DNA of 64,000 bases from an uncultured Alphaproteobacteria bacterium (GTDB lineage: Bacteria > Pseudomonadota > Alphaproteobacteria > RF32 > CAG-239). Within the stretch, counting starts at the first letter, position 1, and each line of letters opens with the position of its first letter. The DNA is taken from positions 8,279-72,278 of the forward strand of contig CALXUN010000002.1 in assembly GCA_944391705.1 (NCBI GenBank), in the 5' to 3' direction. Below the pieces are notes generated by a model. The model searched no databases, had not been told where the DNA came from, and saw only the letters and a program-made list of their open reading frames with translations. Positions 8,951 to 56,747 of this stretch are shown piece by piece. Made by a program: the position numbers and the translations under genes.

Positions 8951-9129
8951 TTTAAATACTTCCACAGTCGTTTAAAATAATTGTTGTTAAGTTAGCCGAA
9001 AAAGGTTATCTTTGCATTAATTATTTCATGAATATGATGATTTGTTGCATAACCTGTGCAAAAAAACTCTTGACAAAACTTTGAAAATATGCTTAAGATA
9101 GACAAAACGACCCAAGAAAGGAAAAAGAA

Positions 9130-9285
9130 ATGAGTAAAGCAGTCATACAAGCCAAATTTGGCGGAAAGAAAATCGGAAGCGGCGAAAACCGTGAAATTCC
9201 GACGCCGAAAGCTTTGGAAAAATTTGTACAGAATACCGCTAAATCCAATACGGTTTCTATGCAAAAAGAACAGCCGATTCGTTAA
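9130..9285 (+). CDS. Small basic protein of 51 aa; not in the ORF track
   Basis: ATG at 9130 preceded by AAAGGAAA. Strong promoter upstream: TTGACA at 9071-9076, about 18 nt, then TAAGAT. An intrinsic terminator follows at 9322-9350. Translation: MSKAVIQAKFGGKKIGSGENREIPTPKALEKFVQNTAKSNTVSMQKEQPIR. Confidence 0.35.
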   Translation: MSKAVIQAKFGGKKIGSGENREIPTPKALEKFVQNTAKSNTVSMQKEQPIR

Positions 9286-9373: not shown

Positions 9374-9814
9374 TTATTCCCGATGATAAGGATGACCGTT
9401 CAAAATGGTCTGGATTCGGTAAATTTGTTCGGTTAAAACCACGCGCATCAACATATGCGGCAATGTGAGCTTTCCAAAAGAAAGAACCATATCCGCCCGT
9501 TTGCGCGTCGATTCCAAGTGCCCGTCAGCACCGCCGATTAAAAAACAGATTTCCGAACAACCGGAAAGCATCCAGTTTTCAATTTTTTTAGCAAGCTCAA
9601 CACTTTTTACGTTTTCACCACGTTCATCTAAAACAACCACTTTAGCACCGGAGGGAATATTGCTTAATAAAAATTCAGCTTCTTCGGCCTGAGAAGAGTT
9701 TTCTTTTTCTTTAATAATCATTTCCCAGCCGGAACGTTTGACATATTCCGAAATTAAAGCCCATTCCGGTGAATTACGGCGGCATTTTCCGATAGCAAGG
9801 ATATAAACTTTCAT
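9374..9814 (-). CDS. rlmH: 23S rRNA (pseudouridine1915-N3)-methyltransferase RlmH (SPOUT)
   Basis: About 150-aa SPOUT fold with conserved C-terminal GHPYHRE-like end and the IGGADGH motif. Confidence 0.9.
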   Translation of the reverse strand: MKVYILAIGKCRRNSPEWALISEYVKRSGWEMIIKEKENSSQAEEAEFLLSNIPSGAKVVVLDERGENVKSVELAKKIENWMLSGCSEICFLIGGADGHLESTRKRADMVLSFGKLTLPHMLMRVVLTEQIYRIQTILNGHPYHRE

Positions 9815-10115
9815 GGTATTTACCTTTCGTTTTATTTATGTTTCATATTTATATAAAAGTAAATATCTTTTTAAAAGACATGTATCAGGCTCTTCCACAT
9901 CGTCGTGCCTTTAAAATGCCTCTTACCCCTTCCCTGTCATGCCTACGCAGCCGCATTAGCGTCTGAGTACTAGGCATCCACGAATCAAAAAAACATCATC
10001 TTTACAGCTGGGTGATAAAACTTCAGTCTGCTATGATTGTGTTTCCTGCAATAGCGCCAACTTCAAAAAAATTCCGTCTGGGGATTATGTCGAAATCGGC
10101 GATGATGCAACAGAG

Positions 10116-11742: not shown

Positions 11743-11985
11743 GTGCAAAGCTTTACACCAAAAAAAACAAAAGTACCAAGTGTTTTTAAAATATTTTATC
11801 ATCTGTTTTTTAGATGACGCTTTGAAACACTTAATTCACGGAAGCAAACATACTTGAGGAAGAACAGTAACAAACAGTAGGTTGTAACTTATCCCCTACA
11901 AGACTCTTTAAAATTGCAAAAAAAAAAAACAGTTTAGAATGACGGGCAAATCAGTATTTTTTGCAATTTTTCAGGAGTTCTTTGG

Positions 11986-12720
11986 ATGAAACATAATCTT
12001 TTTTCATTCTTATGCAGAGGGCTGCAGATGCGCCGTAACTTTTTAACGACGTGTACGATATCGGGTACACAAGGAAAAAAGTTACAAGCAGATATTGCTC
12101 TATGCGGAAGAAGCATGGTGGAGATGTTGGGGGTACTGGCAATTATTGGTGTGCTTTCGGTCGGCGCTATCTCGGGTTATTCCAAGGCGATGATGAAATA
12201 CAAACTCAACAAACAAGCCGAGCAATTAAGCTGGCTGTTTAACATTATCTATCAATACAAAGGACAGTTCGTTTTTGATAAGAAAACTTCCATGATACCT
12301 TTATTTACCAAATTAAATTTAATTGACCAAAATATGATACGTGCTGATAAAAAAGAAACAATCTACGATTCTTTCGGCAATGCCATCGCTATAGCCAACA
12401 ACAACGGCCCGAAGTTCAATGAAATTGTCTTGAATATGGGTTTACCGAAAAGCAGTTCTAACCGCTTGGCGATTTGTCAAAATGTTTTTAACGTTGCTAA
12501 AGCCCACAGTCCTTACCTGCTTTACATTCGCACCGACAACAGAGAAAGCCAAAGTGAGCCGGTAACCCCTTCCGATATGTATTACGGCGATAGCCTTTGC
12601 CAAAGTCGGGGAAATGGTGTAAATTGTATACGTTACGCAACTCTTGAAAACATTTATAATGTCTGCCAAAATTGTGATGAAATGCCAATTTGTTATTTTT
12701 CTATCACGTGGCGCATATAA
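11986..12720 (+). CDS. Prepilin-like protein (type IV pilin or pseudopilin N-terminal domain), paralog 1
   Basis: Class-III signal: ...ALCG|RSMVEMLGVLAIIGVLSVGAISGY, with Glu at +5 after the conserved Gly and a hydrophobic alpha1 helix. C-terminal Cys cluster (CQNCDEMPICY). Unusually long 40-aa leader. Terminator at 12748-12781. Confidence 0.65.
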   Translation: MKHNLFSFLCRGLQMRRNFLTTCTISGTQGKKLQADIALCGRSMVEMLGVLAIIGVLSVGAISGYSKAMMKYKLNKQAEQLSWLFNIIYQYKGQFVFDKKTSMIPLFTKLNLIDQNMIRADKKETIYDSFGNAIAIANNNGPKFNEIVLNMGLPKSSSNRLAICQNVFNVAKAHSPYLLYIRTDNRESQSEPVTPSDMYYGDSLCQSRGNGVNCIRYATLENIYNVCQNCDEMPICYFSITWRI

Positions 12721-16990: not shown

Positions 16991-17134
16991 TTTATTAACA
17001 TACTGGAAATCCCCCGGAAAAAAACGGGGGACTTTTTTTTACATTTCACGCTAAGACTTTGGCAAAATCTGCCGGAAATAATGGATTTTAAAATTTTTCC
17101 TTGCAATATCCTCACAATTCCTTAATATAAATAC

Positions 17135-17290
17135 TACCGTCGTTTGACGGTGGTGTCCGTAAGACATCTTCATACCAAAAACTCCTTGTTTGGGGAGTGG
17201 AGGAAATAAGGCTTTGCTCGAATAACTCTGACTGTGGTATGACAGTTTTACGGCTCCCCACCTTAAAGTTTTTAAGGTGGTTTTGTTTTA
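17135..17290 (+). ncRNA. Candidate structured small RNA or cis-acting leader, copy A. Has a paralog at 56500-56655 on the minus strand.
   Basis: Promoter TTGCAA (17101-17106), 16 nt, then TAATAT (17123-17128). 5' hairpin CCGTCGTTTGACGG, internal ACUGU...ACAGU hairpin, anti-SD-like ACUCCUUG and GGAGG segments. Ends in an intrinsic terminator, CCACCTTAAAGTTTTTAAGGTGG followed by a T-run. Nearly identical in sequence to the copy at 56 kb. Confidence 0.45.
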
Positions 17291-17318
17291 ATTTATAAAC
17301 AAAGATGGAGTTAATAAA

Positions 17319-17627
17319 ATGATTTATTCTTTTAAACCCGGAAACGATGAATATATTCATCTTGTCAGCGGACTTATCCGCGAAGAACTCGGAAAAACCT
17401 TAACCCGAATTCGCAAAGAAAAAAATTTAACTATCCGTGAAGTCTCGGAAACAAACAGGCTTAATCTACCCATGTTGCATTCTCTGGAACAAAATACCAA
17501 ACGCAACGGGTGGATAAATTTTAAGAAAACCGCTGAAAAATACGGCTATGATTTAATGATACGCCTTAAATTCTCGGTTGATGTGGCAGCCCTTGAAAAG
17601 CCCAAACCCAGAGAGCATAACCGGTAG
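17319..17627 (+). CDS. XRE-family HTH transcriptional regulator (paralog A)
   Basis: HTH_XRE: ELGKTLTRIRKEKNLTIREVSETNRLNLPMLHSLEQN. The C-terminal YGYDLMIRLKFSVD is shared with the 56185-56460 paralog. Lies immediately downstream of RNA element A. Confidence 0.7.
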   Translation: MIYSFKPGNDEYIHLVSGLIREELGKTLTRIRKEKNLTIREVSETNRLNLPMLHSLEQNTKRNGWINFKKTAEKYGYDLMIRLKFSVDVAALEKPKPREHNR

Positions 17628-20363: not shown

Positions 20364-20716
20364 AATCGCTTTTCTCCATAATTAAATTTTCCTGCGCCAT
20401 ATAATGACAGCACCTTATAAAATACACAACCTAAATTATAGGACAATCCAATCAACAATTATTTCTAAATTGTCGTAAACACAAACGCCATAACACAGAT
20501 TCCTTAAAAAAATGGTATACAGACACCTGATTAAATCAAAACAAAAATCTTCCTGATTTCCCGGAGCAAGACCTGTTTAAAGAGAGCAAAAAAACGTACC
20601 GGAAGTATGCTCTCCTTTGCGCCAAAAGAATCTTTAAAGTTGCAAAAAAAAAAACGGTTTAGAATGACGCGTAAATCTTATTTGTTTTGTAATTTTTGTA
20701 ACTTTGGAGATTTTTT

Positions 20717-21553
20717 ATGAAACCTTGGTTTTCTTTATTCTTACGCAGAATGTTGCAGATGCGCCGTAACTTTCTGACGACGTGTACAACATTAGGTACA
20801 CGAGGAGAAAAGTTGCAAGCAGATGCGACTTTTTCCGGAAGAAACGAACGACCGCAGAACCGGACAGATGCGAAGCCTTGTTTGAGCGACGTGTACAAAA
20901 TGAGTACACGAGCGAAAAGAAGGCAAACAGATGTTCGGTTATCCGGTCGTTCTATGGTGGAGATGTTGGGAGTTTTAGCAATTATTGGAGTTTTAAGTGT
21001 TGGCGTTATCTCGGGCTATTCCAAAGCCATGATGAAGTATAAACTCAACCGACAAACAGAACAAATCGGTAGTATTCTAGATTATGTTCTGATTAATTCT
21101 GATAAGTTTAATCACGATACTTCCATAGCATTTATTTCATTATTATATAAATTGAATGCCATTCCGGTGGAAATGATAAGGGAAGATTGGATCTACGGCT
21201 ATGCTTATGACATATTCGGCAATAAAGTATATCTGAATGACAATAATGATGGAAATAATATTTATTATAGTTTATCCGTTTCCATCAGTAAATACTCGCG
21301 CGAAATTTGTATGAATTTATACCAAATGGCCAAGCTCCGTTCTGCCAATTTATGGCAAACCGTGTTTAATAAAGACACCCAAAGTTCTTCCATGGAACAC
21401 ACCAACAGAGTATGGGGCGATTCTTATTGCAGCAAATCAGTTACTTGCCTCAAAGATTTAAGCTTAACACAAATGGACGAACTTTGTTCAGCATGTGACG
21501 ATTCTCAAACCTATTGTAGATTTTATATTTTATGGGGTCGGATCAAACCTTAA
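20717..21553 (+). CDS. Prepilin-like protein, paralog 2, with a duplicated leader module
   Basis: Identical mature N-terminus G|RSMVEMLGVLAIIGVLSVGVISGYSKAMMKYKLN. The 77-aa leader contains a tandem duplication of the leader module. Divergent C-terminal domain with a Cys cluster (CSACDDSQTYC). Confidence 0.6.
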   Translation: MKPWFSLFLRRMLQMRRNFLTTCTTLGTRGEKLQADATFSGRNERPQNRTDAKPCLSDVYKMSTRAKRRQTDVRLSGRSMVEMLGVLAIIGVLSVGVISGYSKAMMKYKLNRQTEQIGSILDYVLINSDKFNHDTSIAFISLLYKLNAIPVEMIREDWIYGYAYDIFGNKVYLNDNNDGNNIYYSLSVSISKYSREICMNLYQMAKLRSANLWQTVFNKDTQSSSMEHTNRVWGDSYCSKSVTCLKDLSLTQMDELCSACDDSQTYCRFYILWGRIKP

Positions 21554-32636: not shown

Positions 32637-33308
32637 TTATTTCTGTTCAGCCAGCTTCTTGTCCTGAGCCATCGGATCATGAGCCATAATTTCGCCTTTA
32701 TAGATCCAGACTTTAACGCCGCAGGCACCATAAGTGGTATGAGCCGTTGAGGTAGCATAATCAATGTCTGCACGCAGCGTATGCAAAGGAACGCGTCCTT
32801 CGCGGTAAGATTCGGTACGGGCAATTTCGGCACCGCCCAAACGACCGCTGCAGCAAACCTTGATGCCTTCCGCGCCCAAACGAAGCGCAGACTGCATAAC
32901 CCTCTTCATAGCCCGGCGGAAAGCAACACGTCTTTCCAACTGCTGGGCAACCGAATCAGCCACAAGTTTTGCATCCAGTTCAGGTTTTCTGACTTCCAGA
33001 ATGTTCAACTGAACTTCAGAAGATGTCAGTTTCTGAATTTCTTTTCTCAAATTCTCGATATCCTGACCCTTTTTGCCGATAACAACACCGGGTCTGGCCG
33101 AATGAATGGTAACTCTGGCTTTTTTGGCCGGACGCTCAATAACGATGCGGCTGACCCCTGCCTGAGCCAATTTTTCTTTCAAGAATTCTTTAATTTTTAA
33201 ATCTTCGTGGAGATAGTCGGTAAACTTGTCATCATCAGCATACCAACGAGAGTCCCAGGTGCGGTTAACGCCCAAACGAAGACCTGTAGGATTTACTTTC
33301 TGTCCCAT
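32637..33308 (-). CDS. rpsC: 30S ribosomal protein S3
   Basis: KH domain and conserved S3 sequence. Confidence 0.95.
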
Positions 33309-33313
33309 TTAAC

Positions 33314-33688
33314 TTACTCCCCACGCTCGGTGACGACGACAGTCAGGCTGGAAAACGGTTTTAAAACCCGTGCCCCGCGCCCGCGACCGCGTGCGTGCAT
33401 ACGTTTCATAACTAAGCCTTTTCCGACAAACGCTTCGCTGACAACGAGTTTGTCAATATTCAGGCTGTGATTGTTTTCGGCATTGGCAATTGCAGATTGC
33501 AGCAATCCCAACGCAACTTTGGCAATTCTCTTCTTAGAGAAAGAGAGCTCAGCAACAGCTTTTTCGGCCGACAGACCACGGATAGACTGGGCAACCAAGT
33601 TCAGTTTACGCGGGCTGGTGCGGATAGAGCGGCAAACGGCCATCGCCTGATTTTGAGCTACTCTTCTTGCATCTTTAGTTTTTCCCAT
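33314..33688 (-). CDS. rplV: 50S ribosomal protein L22
   Basis: Conserved L22 sequence. Confidence 0.95.
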
Positions 33689-47846: not shown

Positions 47847-48443
47847 ATGCAACGGATACATCAGCTTTTACATCAAATGTATGACTTAATGTTAAGACTT
47901 TCGGCACACAACAAAGCCATGTTCTTTTTATTTTTGGTATCTTTTGCCGAAAGTTCGTTTTTCCCGATTCCCCCGGATGTCATGATTATCCCGATGGTTT
48001 TAGCCACACCAAATAAAGCTTGGCGGATTGCAGGTTTGGCTACGGTTGCCAGCGTTTTAGGCGGATATTTCGGCTATATCATCGGCGCCGGATTTTTTGA
48101 TTTGATTGCCAAACCGATTTTGGAAATGTATAACGCACTCGAACAATTCAAAGAATTTGAAGACTACTACCACAAATTCGGCGCGTGGATTGTTTTTGCT
48201 GCCGGCTTAACCCCGTTTCCCTATAAAATCATCACTATTGCCAGCGGTGTTGTTCATTTGGATTTGTTTGTCTTTACCGTTGCCTCAATTTTGGCGCGCG
48301 GCATGCGGTTTTTCTTTGTTGCCTGGCTCTTGAAAAAATACGGCGAACCGATGAAAATCTTTATTGAAAAGAATTTGGGCTGGCTTTCGGTTTTGTTTTT
48401 AATTCTCTTAATCGGTAGTTTTATGCTGATTAAATGGTTGTAA
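47847..48443 (+). CDS. YqaA/DedA-family (SNARE-associated domain) membrane protein
   Basis: FFPIPPDVMIIPMVLA motif and 4-5 TM helices. Confidence 0.7.
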   Translation: MQRIHQLLHQMYDLMLRLSAHNKAMFFLFLVSFAESSFFPIPPDVMIIPMVLATPNKAWRIAGLATVASVLGGYFGYIIGAGFFDLIAKPILEMYNALEQFKEFEDYYHKFGAWIVFAAGLTPFPYKIITIASGVVHLDLFVFTVASILARGMRFFFVAWLLKKYGEPMKIFIEKNLGWLSVLFLILLIGSFMLIKWL

Positions 48444-48876
48444 GAAAACTCAGCCTATAAAAATCATATAAATATCGCCAGGTAGCCCAGGATTCTGTGC
48501 AGCCACGGACCTACAGTTTGACTTTTGCTCTTAGGGCATGACGAACTGAGAGGCCGTCGCACATGTTGTCACCCCTATGAGGACGCATAGCGTCCGAATA
48601 CCAGGGGTCCACAAAAACTAAAGCAATAACATTTGATTTGTGGATGCCTGATACTCACTCGCTTACGCTTGTTCTTAAGCCATGACAGAAAGGGAGAAGA
48701 GATACTCGTAGCATAAAGCGGTGTTGCAATAGATATCCCCCAGTAAACTGGGGGTTCTATAACAGCTACAAACCTTACGGTTTGACCAAGCTCGTTGGCG
48801 TGGAGCGGTGTTGTTCCAACACCTTGGCATTCAGCCCCGAGTAAACTCGGGGTTTTCTGTAAGGCAACTAAATAAA

Positions 48877-48915
48877 CCAACCCCCGCATTGGGATGCGGG
48901 GGTTGGTTTGATTTA
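48877..48915. terminator. Strong bidirectional terminator
   Basis: AACCAACCCCCGCATTGGGATGCGGGGGTTGGTTT. Confidence 0.8.
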
Positions 48916-56184: not shown

Positions 56185-56460
56185 TTATTCTTTATCCTTA
56201 TTTTTATCCTTGGCCGGAGAATAATCAACGAGTTCGATTTTAACCCGCTTGTCATAAAACGCTGCCAGCTGCGCCAGATAGCCGCCGTTAATCTGGCCGC
56301 GGCCGCATATCAGATAATCCAATTGCCATTCCGGTATGCGAGAAAGCACTGATAAATCTTTTAACGGCATATCGTGTCTTTGGCGTAATTCCCATAACAG
56401 CTTTCGGGTTTCACGCCGGGTTAATCTTAAGGCCGCGCGCTTTTGTTGTTTATTAAGCAT
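56185..56460 (-). CDS. XRE-like small regulator, paralog B of 17319-17627
   Basis: Start set at the ATG at 56460 (MLNKQQKRAALRL...), preceded by AAAGGAG. The C-terminal FYDKRVKIELVD aligns with YGYDLMIRLKFSVD of paralog A. Confidence 0.55.
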   Translation of the reverse strand: MLNKQQKRAALRLTRRETRKLLWELRQRHDMPLKDLSVLSRIPEWQLDYLICGRGQINGGYLAQLAAFYDKRVKIELVDYSPAKDKNKDKE

Positions 56461-56499
56461 TTTTATAAGCTCCTTTCTTTTGTTCATACTAAAATTAAA

Positions 56500-56655
56500 A
56501 ACAAAACCGCTTTAGAAAATTCCAAAGCGGGGAGCCAAAAAACTGTCACAATGCAGTCAGAGTTATTCGTGCCAAAGGCCTTATTTCCTCTACTCCCCCA
56601 AAGAAGGAGTTTTATTGTGAAGATGTTTTTTGGACACCACCGTCAAACGACGGCA
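56500..56655 (-). ncRNA. Candidate structured small RNA or leader, copy B (paralog of 17135-17290)
   Basis: Promoter TTGCAA (56684-56689), 16 nt, then TAATAT (complement of 56662-56667). Terminator CCGCTTTGGAATTTTCTAAAGCGG followed by a T-run on the minus strand. Sequence is near-identical to copy A, with compensatory substitutions in the stems. Confidence 0.45.
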
Positions 56656-56747
56656 GTGCTTATATTAAAGAAATTCCCCATTTTTGCAAGTGTTTTTTAA
56701 AAGCTCCCTCAAACGGGAGCTTTTGTTAATTACTCTCATTTGTTGAC

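Follow-up and report, generated by a model that had tools for sequence, protein, structure and literature searches.

What is the structured RNA that stands, in two places, directly in front of a small regulator gene in the DNA of an uncultured member of the Alphaproteobacteria: a leader that controls this gene, or a small RNA (sRNA) in its own right? The question is raised by a stretch of 64,000 nucleotides (nt) from assembly GCA_944391705.1 (contig CALXUN010000002.1, positions 8,279 to 72,278 of the forward strand), here called the window, in which an earlier note, made from the letters alone, had seen two cassettes of a promoter, a structured RNA with a terminator and a gene for a helix-turn-helix (HTH) protein of the XRE type, and had left both possibilities standing. 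Here we show that the RNA has a conserved secondary structure, backed by compensatory changes beyond those of controls, and that it represents a structured RNA family of narrow host range that is not catalogued in Rfam 15. As to its role, we favour, at a probability of roughly 45%, one transcription unit that would yield two products from one promoter, a small RNA ending at the terminator and, where transcripts read through it, the mRNA of the XRE gene, and in which the fold would modulate read-through.

A conserved RNA fold in two cassettes

Copy A of the RNA occupies 17130-17289 on the plus strand and copy B 56660-56498 on the minus strand, with covariance-model scores of 167.6 and 181.4 bits, respectively, both at the places given before; pattern searches, and the covariance model run with its filters off, found no third copy in the window. 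The two RNAs are about 80% identical in the model alignment (p-distance 0.21), and in a pairwise MAFFT alignment their identity, near-continuous between the -35 hexamer and the T-run, is lost just past the terminator. Each copy is preceded by a sigma70-like promoter (TTGCAA-N16-TAATAT), located at 17101-17128 for copy A (-35 hexamer at 17101-17106, -10 hexamer at 17123-17128) and at 56662-56689 on the minus strand for copy B (56689-56684 and 56667-56662). These hexamers are invariant across the copies of the main clade while the spacer between them varies; a generic promoter scanner did not flag the hexamers of either cassette promoter (8/12 matches). For copy A, the transcription start site is predicted to lie within a few nt of 17131-17136. 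The intrinsic terminator of copy A (17258-17290) has a 10-bp stem at 17258-17280, CCACCUUAAA/UUUAAGGUGG, followed by UUUUGUUUU, the letters after the stem reading TTTTGTTTT (the T-run), and that of copy B has its stem at 56530-56507, with a T-run reaching to about 56497. The stems of the two terminators differ by compensatory changes, as had been noted, and this helix, the seventh of the fold, covaries.

Directly behind each copy, on the same strand, stands the small open reading frame (ORF) with its own GGAG ribosome binding site that the earlier note had pointed out. In the A cassette a 28-nt spacer (17291-17318), carrying the Shine-Dalgarno (SD) sequence GGAG at 17307-17310, leads to the A-type gene at 17319-17627 (102 amino acids, aa); the B-type gene lies at 56460-56185 on the minus strand (91 aa), its ATG at 56460 being preceded by AAGGAG. 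No usable promoter-like site was found between the terminator and the SD sequence in either window cassette, and in the sole promoter-like match in spacer A the -10 hexamer falls on the start codon.

The architecture is the same in both copies. It begins with a 5' hairpin, P1; P2 and P3 then form a long stem, interrupted by a conserved internal loop, that leads to a three-way junction bearing P4 and the P5-P6 arm; this arm holds an invariant purine-rich internal loop, GAAAUAAG facing CGAAUAA. When alignment columns are mapped to coordinates, the helices of copy A (plus strand) are P1 at 17131-41/17146-56, P2 at 17157-65/17245-53, P3 at 17170-76/17236-42, P4 at 17183-86/17192-95, P5 at 17196-202/17226-33 and P6 at 17211-12/17216-17, with invariant segments at 17192-98 (GGGGAGU), 17203-10 (GAAAUAAG), 17219-25 (CGAAUAA) and 17254-59 (CUCCCC). 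Those of copy B (minus strand) are P1 at 56659-49/56644-34, P2 at 56633-25/56543-35, P3 at 56620-14/56552-46, P4 at 56607-04/56598-95, P5 at 56594-88/56562-55 and P6 at 56579-78/56572-71. Measured against shuffled sequences, the minimum free energy (MFE) has a z-score of -5.3 for copy A and -5.5 for copy B, and none of 200 shuffles folded as well.

Is this fold conserved? Two copies alone are insufficient to say so by covariation, as the earlier note had proposed, but with 21 distinct sequences the evidence is solid. In a covariance-model alignment of this set, compared with controls in which the 3' partners were slid by 1-3 columns and with 500 shuffles, 96.5% of the pair cells are standard-paired, as opposed to 38-45% with slid partners, and double-sided changes occur at 29 of the 50 pairs (186 cells), while 0/500 shuffles attain any of the observed measures. 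It should be noted that a model-fitted alignment is biased towards the structure. A plain MAFFT alignment of 19 sequences, analysed with RNAalifold along the lines already suggested, nevertheless has 30/50 pairs maintained via two-sided changes. By helix, such changes are seen at 3/11 pairs of P1, 7/9 of P2, 7/7 of P3, 4/7 of P5, 2/2 of P6 and 6/10 of the terminator, with P4 (CUCC/GGGG) displaying one-sided, register-dependent changes only. The P5 strands, for instance, vary together as GGAG/CUCU, CCCG/UGGG, UCCU/AGGA, UCUG/CAGA, GGGC/GCCU and AAGU/ACUU. In most sequence pairs the divergence of paired positions is 2-3 times that of unpaired ones (0.29 versus 0.09 for copy A and the copy L024a). 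Invariant or nearly so are GGUGU at the boundary of P1 and P2, ACAUC and CAGU(U)U around the internal loop of P2 and P3, CUCC...GGGGAGU of P4, GA(A/U)AUAAG facing CGAAUAA across the P5/P6 internal loop, and (G/A)CUCC(C/U)C in the segment that links P2 to the terminator. Two details of the earlier structural description did not hold: the proposed internal ACUGU/ACAGU hairpin would have as its loop GGUAUG, which is the 3' strand of the fully covarying P3, and the "GGAGG" that had been read as an SD-like segment, next to an anti-SD-like one, is the 5' strand of P5, changing freely with its partner.

Could the element be something other than an RNA, either a coding stretch on one of the strands, or a palindromic repeat or recombination site at the level of the DNA? 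ORFs do cross it on both strands in several copies, some of which gene callers have called, and the ORFs behind it are exchanged at an orthologous locus, as would also be expected around a recombination site. In copy A, the claim that no plausible ORF covers the element has to make room for mechanical ORFs of 33 aa on the plus strand (17197-17298) and 82 aa on the minus strand (17112-17360); its substance, that the element is non-coding, is upheld, since, with loop indels of 1-3 nt and the compensatory changes in the stems, no reading frame holds from copy to copy, and a leader peptide after GGAGG is not conserved either. Furthermore, G-U pairs are frequent in the alignment, and on the opposite strand they would turn into A-C mismatches, from which it follows that the folded strand is the one bearing the promoter and the terminator, and searches of plasmids, phages and viral contigs gave no match. 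We therefore give this explanation next to no weight and consider coding or DNA-level explanations effectively excluded. Spurious antisense ORFs over the RNA are found at 17112-17360 (minus strand) and 56443-56700 (plus strand) of the window, at L024:15570-15839 and at L016:375-584, and some antisense ORFs of this kind are annotated as genes in public assemblies (P0068, P0069), which are annotation artefacts.

The earlier note had not recognised a characterised family, and a search of the whole window with cmscan against Rfam 15 at gathering thresholds likewise returned 0 matches. In E-value mode at both loci, every match is far below its gathering score, the best reaching 23 bits where 44-60 would be needed, and matches cover terminators or AT-rich flanks only; BLAST of the RNA element against plasmid and phage collections was without match. 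An integron attC site, a retron, a type III toxin-antitoxin system and a hammerhead-like core were considered and rejected: there are no partner genes, the housekeeping contexts are dispersed and Rfam has no match. Candidate RNAs of the human microbiome often neighbour HTH-XRE genes according to Fremin & Bhatt (2021; PMC8040213); the motif strings of our RNA are absent from the supplementary files searched (200 of 408), so that an earlier listing is possible.

Relatives of the cassette and its exchangeable genes

How widely does the RNA occur, and does it always keep the company of the same gene? The first search, with a pattern that combined the two loops of highest conservation, covered 185,579 species-representative genomes and found true relatives in 2 of them, both metagenome-assembled genomes (MAGs) of uncultured Alphaproteobacteria, one from roe deer rumen. 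Other matches to the loop pattern, namely L001 and L005 in the genome scan and L006-L008 in the collections metagenome_contigs and viral_contigs, arose by chance and were rejected, and scans of JGI metagenomes and IMG/VR with this pattern gave chance matches only. A protein query, consisting of an alignment of four divergent ORFs located behind the RNA, retrieved 67 proteins, each close to one of four ORF groups, and the contigs of these proteins (from ENA, NCBI and Logan metagenome assemblies) supplied the loci L009-L033. About 24 further RNA copies were found in related MAG and metagenome contigs, and the host range is that of uncultured gut and rumen Alphaproteobacteria.

The co-occurrence of RNA and HTH gene in related genomes, to which the earlier note had drawn attention, is complete in the sampled direction: by nhmmer and the covariance model R1, the RNA lies directly upstream of the ORF at every locus with upstream DNA. 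In about 330 kb, an RNA copy immediately precedes each family ORF, the start of which lies 15-45 nt past the T-run (at L027 the RNA is partial), and when all ORFs of this DNA were searched with the family profile, members were found nowhere else. The linkage spans four HTH groups and at least seven genomic contexts of housekeeping character: between DUF805 and adhE, CarD and FBP (fructose-bisphosphate) aldolase, a response regulator and Rho, ADP-PFK and RlmN, or GidA and TrmE, as well as next to RecR and to an NMO-like gene. As most loci were retrieved via the protein, the direction from ORF to RNA is well sampled and that from RNA to ORF is not; an extra search for orphan RNAs, with translations of the spurious antisense ORFs as protein queries, returned only 2 proteins, both over tandem RNA pairs.

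That the ORFs are real genes follows from their ratios of nonsynonymous to synonymous substitution rates (dN/dS), which range from 0.03 to 0.33 within ORF groups (0.07-0.16 in the A group and 0.12-0.33 in the B type). The four groups have less than 30% identity to each other, BLASTP finds no alignment between window proteins A and B, and about 40 close homologues of the B protein all begin with MLNKQQ or MLSKQQ. The XRE-type HTH assignment of the earlier note finds support at the level of the family, although the window proteins taken alone do not reach the Pfam gathering score, protein B having no Pfam match and protein A one under this score. Among 27 members, Pfam detects HTH_3 in 13 and HTH_19 in 6 (best E = 1e-7), with HTH_31 also matched, and the family profile matches DdrO, C.BclI, SinR and ClgR in the PDB with E-values of 2.8e-6 to 1e-3. 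The AlphaFold model of the A protein has a predicted local distance difference test (pLDDT) score of 79.8; its top Foldseek matches are all XRE HTH proteins, and it superposes on C.BclI, ClgR and DdrO with a root-mean-square deviation of 1.6-1.7 Å over 55-58 residues. Judged by family profile and fold search, the ORFs encode XRE/Cro-C1 HTH proteins; a strand-like motif, (I/V)x(I/V)xL(V/I)D, is conserved at their C-terminus.

Between cassettes with unrelated ORFs, homology spans the promoter, the RNA, the terminator, the spacer and the SD sequence, and ends at the start codon. At the orthologous locus between DUF805 and adhE, where the flanks are 85-88% identical, the window has one RNA and an A-type ORF, L003 one RNA and an ORF of an unrelated type, and L029 two RNAs and an ORF of the L003 type. 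Furthermore, RNA and ORF divergence are discordant: L003 and L021b differ by a synonymous distance (dS) of 0.18 in the ORF and by 0.20 in the RNA, and copy B of the window and L014 by a dS of 0.50 and an RNA distance of 0.07. These discordant histories indicate that ORFs have been exchanged behind a conserved RNA head. The sequence of the promoter spacer depends on the locus and not on which type of HTH gene follows: at adhE the spacers are similar in L003, with its L003-type ORF, and in the window, with its A-type ORF. For this reason a cognate HTH operator in the promoter spacer was rejected.

Some further features of the surroundings deserve mention. Two window genes on the plus strand, at 11986-12720 and 20717-21553, have similar upstream and 5' regions (11886-12225 and 20628-21064); their counterparts in related loci match the Bundlin/PilS pilin families, and several relatives have a pilin-like gene within 1-3 kb of the RNA-XRE cassette. 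The window also contains, at 48440-48913, a 470-nt intergenic region dense in GC-rich palindromes such as CCCCCAGTAAACTGGGGG and GCCCCGAGTAAACTCGGGG, pieces of which recur in intergenic DNA of L009 and L016 at 73-84% identity, and which looks like a family of REP-like (repetitive extragenic palindromic) repeats.

A gated leader, a small RNA, or both?

So what might the RNA do for the gene behind it? The strict linkage of RNA and ORF, together with the missing ORF promoter, leads us to favour transcriptional coupling. In the two-product unit that we prefer, the conserved sigma-70-type promoter would drive an RNA of about 160 nt, most transcripts would probably end at the intrinsic terminator and yield a stable small RNA, and a minority would read through into the XRE mRNA. 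Because the ORF lies 15-45 nt behind the terminator and has no promoter of its own, expression of the XRE protein would depend on read-through from the RNA promoter, the amount of which would be set by the conserved fold; this, like partial termination itself, we infer. The only candidate switch is offered by three segments, CUCC, GGGGAGU and CUCC(C/U)C, that are invariant or nearly so in the 21 sequences while the other helices covary: GGGGAGU, the 3' strand of P4, pairs with CUCCUU in the 5' strand of P4 but could, alternatively, pair with CUCCCC in the linker. The latter overlaps the first two bp of the terminator stem, and freeing GGGGAG would weaken the terminator. When the pairing of GGGGAG with CUCCCC is forced, the fold is feasible in all tested sequences and does shorten the terminator stem.

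A number of observations weigh against this proposal, and the switch is its weakest step. The alternative pairing is 5-12 kcal/mol less stable than the MFE fold, it crosses P2 and P3 and would require both to open, P4 should form before it during transcription, and, since it uses invariant bases only, it is beyond the reach of covariation. The transcription start site, the 3' end and any read-through are likewise predictions made from the DNA. Moreover, tandem RNA pairs occur in four contexts (L002, L016/17/32, L021 and L029), in which each copy has its own -35 and -10 hexamers and terminator and compensatory changes preserve every helix in both partners; in addition, the orphan copy L024:15775-15613 is intact and stands at a locus where the relative L019 retains the ORF. 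Taken together, the separately promoted tandem copies and the intact orphan favour a function of the RNA itself over a pure leader. At L027, finally, an insertion has left only the 3' third of the RNA, without the promoter, and the ORF persists.

In all, five intact copies are without a directly adjacent ORF, namely the four upstream tandem copies and the L024 orphan; a second orphan, L004, is degenerate, with a weak terminator, mismatches in P5 and a P4 that reads CCCC. The tandem pairs may be the remnant of two cassettes after loss of the ORF between them. The tandem junction, composed of terminator, CGGAGTTATATWAAAGAAA and promoter, is conserved in three contexts (L016:492-547, L021:9751-9809 and, on the minus strand, L029:10102-10044), and this junction looks like the region around the SD sequence of the A-type ORF, GGAGTTAATAAAATG. 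At L027 (8740-9890, B-type), the minus strand of the insert carries a tRNA-like gene at about 9090-9170, and the insert also has a promoter-like site, TTGACA...TAATAT, followed by a GC-rich foldable stretch at about 9640-9840; genes for resolvase and integrase are found some kb further downstream.

Much of this would also be expected if the RNA were the product, as a purely trans-acting, multi-copy sRNA family working on other mRNAs or on a protein. Such an RNA might act via the exposed, partly unpaired CUCCCC linker, as an anti-SD-like seed, or via the invariant purine-rich loop. The XRE gene, linked to it as a partner such as a regulator of the RNA promoter, would be expressed from incidental read-through. 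The conserved promoter of the RNA and the long U tail of its terminator fit this well, as do the fully maintained tandem copies, the orphan and the discordant divergence of RNA and ORF described above; in addition, CUCCCC is invariant even in the clade of L002 and L012, where its last C is unpaired in the terminator. However, linkage to one gene family, at a short and fixed distance and with no promoter for the ORF, is stricter than one would expect for an sRNA with a passenger gene, sRNAs of the seed type do not usually have so elaborate a fold, with two invariant internal loops, and promoter spacers that track the locus give no sign of a cognate operator. GGGGAG serves as an SD sequence only once in the window, and as a marker of candidate targets this single case was discarded as uninformative. 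On balance, we regard a purely trans-acting sRNA as somewhat unlikely. The gene with GGGGAG as SD sequence is rpsC, for ribosomal protein S3 (32637-33322, minus strand), the only one of the window whose SD sequence, GGGGAGT, equals the 3' heptamer of P4, which is probably a coincidence.

A riboswitch for a metabolite or ion, with the junction and the internal loops as ligand pocket and the terminator as expression platform for the XRE regulators, would also account for the position in the 5' untranslated region, the terminator and the constant gene family downstream. Covarying stems around invariant loops and an invariant junction form an aptamer-like pattern, and tandem arrangements are known among riboswitches. 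Yet the covarying parts of the terminator have no complementary antiterminator: the 3' strand of P2 and P6 were both tried against the 5' strand of the terminator and rejected for want of consistent complementarity, and P2 types and terminator types combine freely. A promoter for each of the tandem copies is also at odds with this explanation, as are downstream genes that are small regulators without a metabolic clue and a very narrow distribution, with 2 of 185,579 species representatives matched. We hold such a riboswitch to be quite improbable.

What would the two-product unit mean, if true? It would place a well-supported structured RNA family in poorly studied, uncultured gut and rumen Alphaproteobacteria, with an unusual layout in which the conserved part is the RNA and the variable, exchangeable part is the regulator gene, and it would provide a testable case of a terminator-gated unit giving both a small RNA and the mRNA of a regulator. 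The three invariant segments suit mutational tests of read-through, and the covariance model could annotate genomes of the clade and remove spurious antisense ORF calls over the element. A bolder idea, which we think unlikely, is that the RNA is a sensing leader of a new class, which would work like a riboswitch or through some cellular factor and put paralogous, fast-diverging XRE regulators under one signal, with the conserved head of promoter, RNA, terminator and SD sequence as the homology anchor for ORF swaps between loci. For now, wider importance is limited by the narrow distribution and by a function that is inferred only.

Comparison with known systems

The proteins of the cassette share the common HTH fold of small XRE/Cro-C1 regulators such as C.BclI and other controllers of restriction-modification systems, ClgR, the N-domain of DdrO, SinR and HipB (profile E-values 2.8e-6 to 1e-4), at an identity of merely 23-30%. 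Unlike systems of the C.BclI, SinR and HipB type, the cassette genes are without a partner gene, be it a toxin, a restriction-modification system or a SinI-like protein, and to our knowledge none of C.BclI, ClgR, DdrO, SinR and HipB has such an RNA leader. A small structured RNA upstream of a regulatory gene, on the same transcript, also recalls c4 RNA of phages P1 and P7 and CI RNA of P4, which confer RNA-based immunity via loops complementary to downstream sites. A c4-like antisense action on the translation start of the ORF was rejected here: predicted duplexes between the RNA and the translation initiation region have a mean of -28.8 kcal/mol for cognate and -27.7 kcal/mol for non-cognate combinations, and in contrast to the phage RNAs there is no match to C4 in Rfam and no phage context.

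Among alphaproteobacterial sRNAs of the anti-SD kind are AbcR1/2, NfeR1 (alpha-r14) and the CcsR 'cuckoo' RNAs; for NfeR1, the motif is reportedly CCUCCUCCC. Like these, our RNA is multi-copy and often tandem, has a conserved promoter of its own and a Rho-independent terminator, and exposes a CUCC-type motif between hairpins. Unlike them, it belongs to another host lineage, has a larger and more elaborate fold with an XRE ORF strictly downstream, and matches none of them in sequence or structure, including their Rfam families.

Classical attenuators follow the trp-type logic of 1:2, 2:3 and 3:4 pairing, and riboswitches use terminators as expression platforms. The cassette resembles both in its structured 5' element with its own promoter, an intrinsic terminator and a promoterless ORF, in stems that covary around invariant loops, and in three complementary invariant segments of which one overlaps the terminator stem. 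It departs from them in having no leader peptide and no Rfam match, in a candidate antiterminator that crosses two long helices, and in its separately promoted tandem copies and orphans. SreA and SreB of Listeria, as well as EutX/Rli55, are small RNAs derived from leaders that have a dual role. In contrast to our RNA, those have a known aptamer class and ligand. The arrangement that we propose is of the same kind: a terminated 5' leader that would accumulate as a small RNA, with read-through giving the mRNA.

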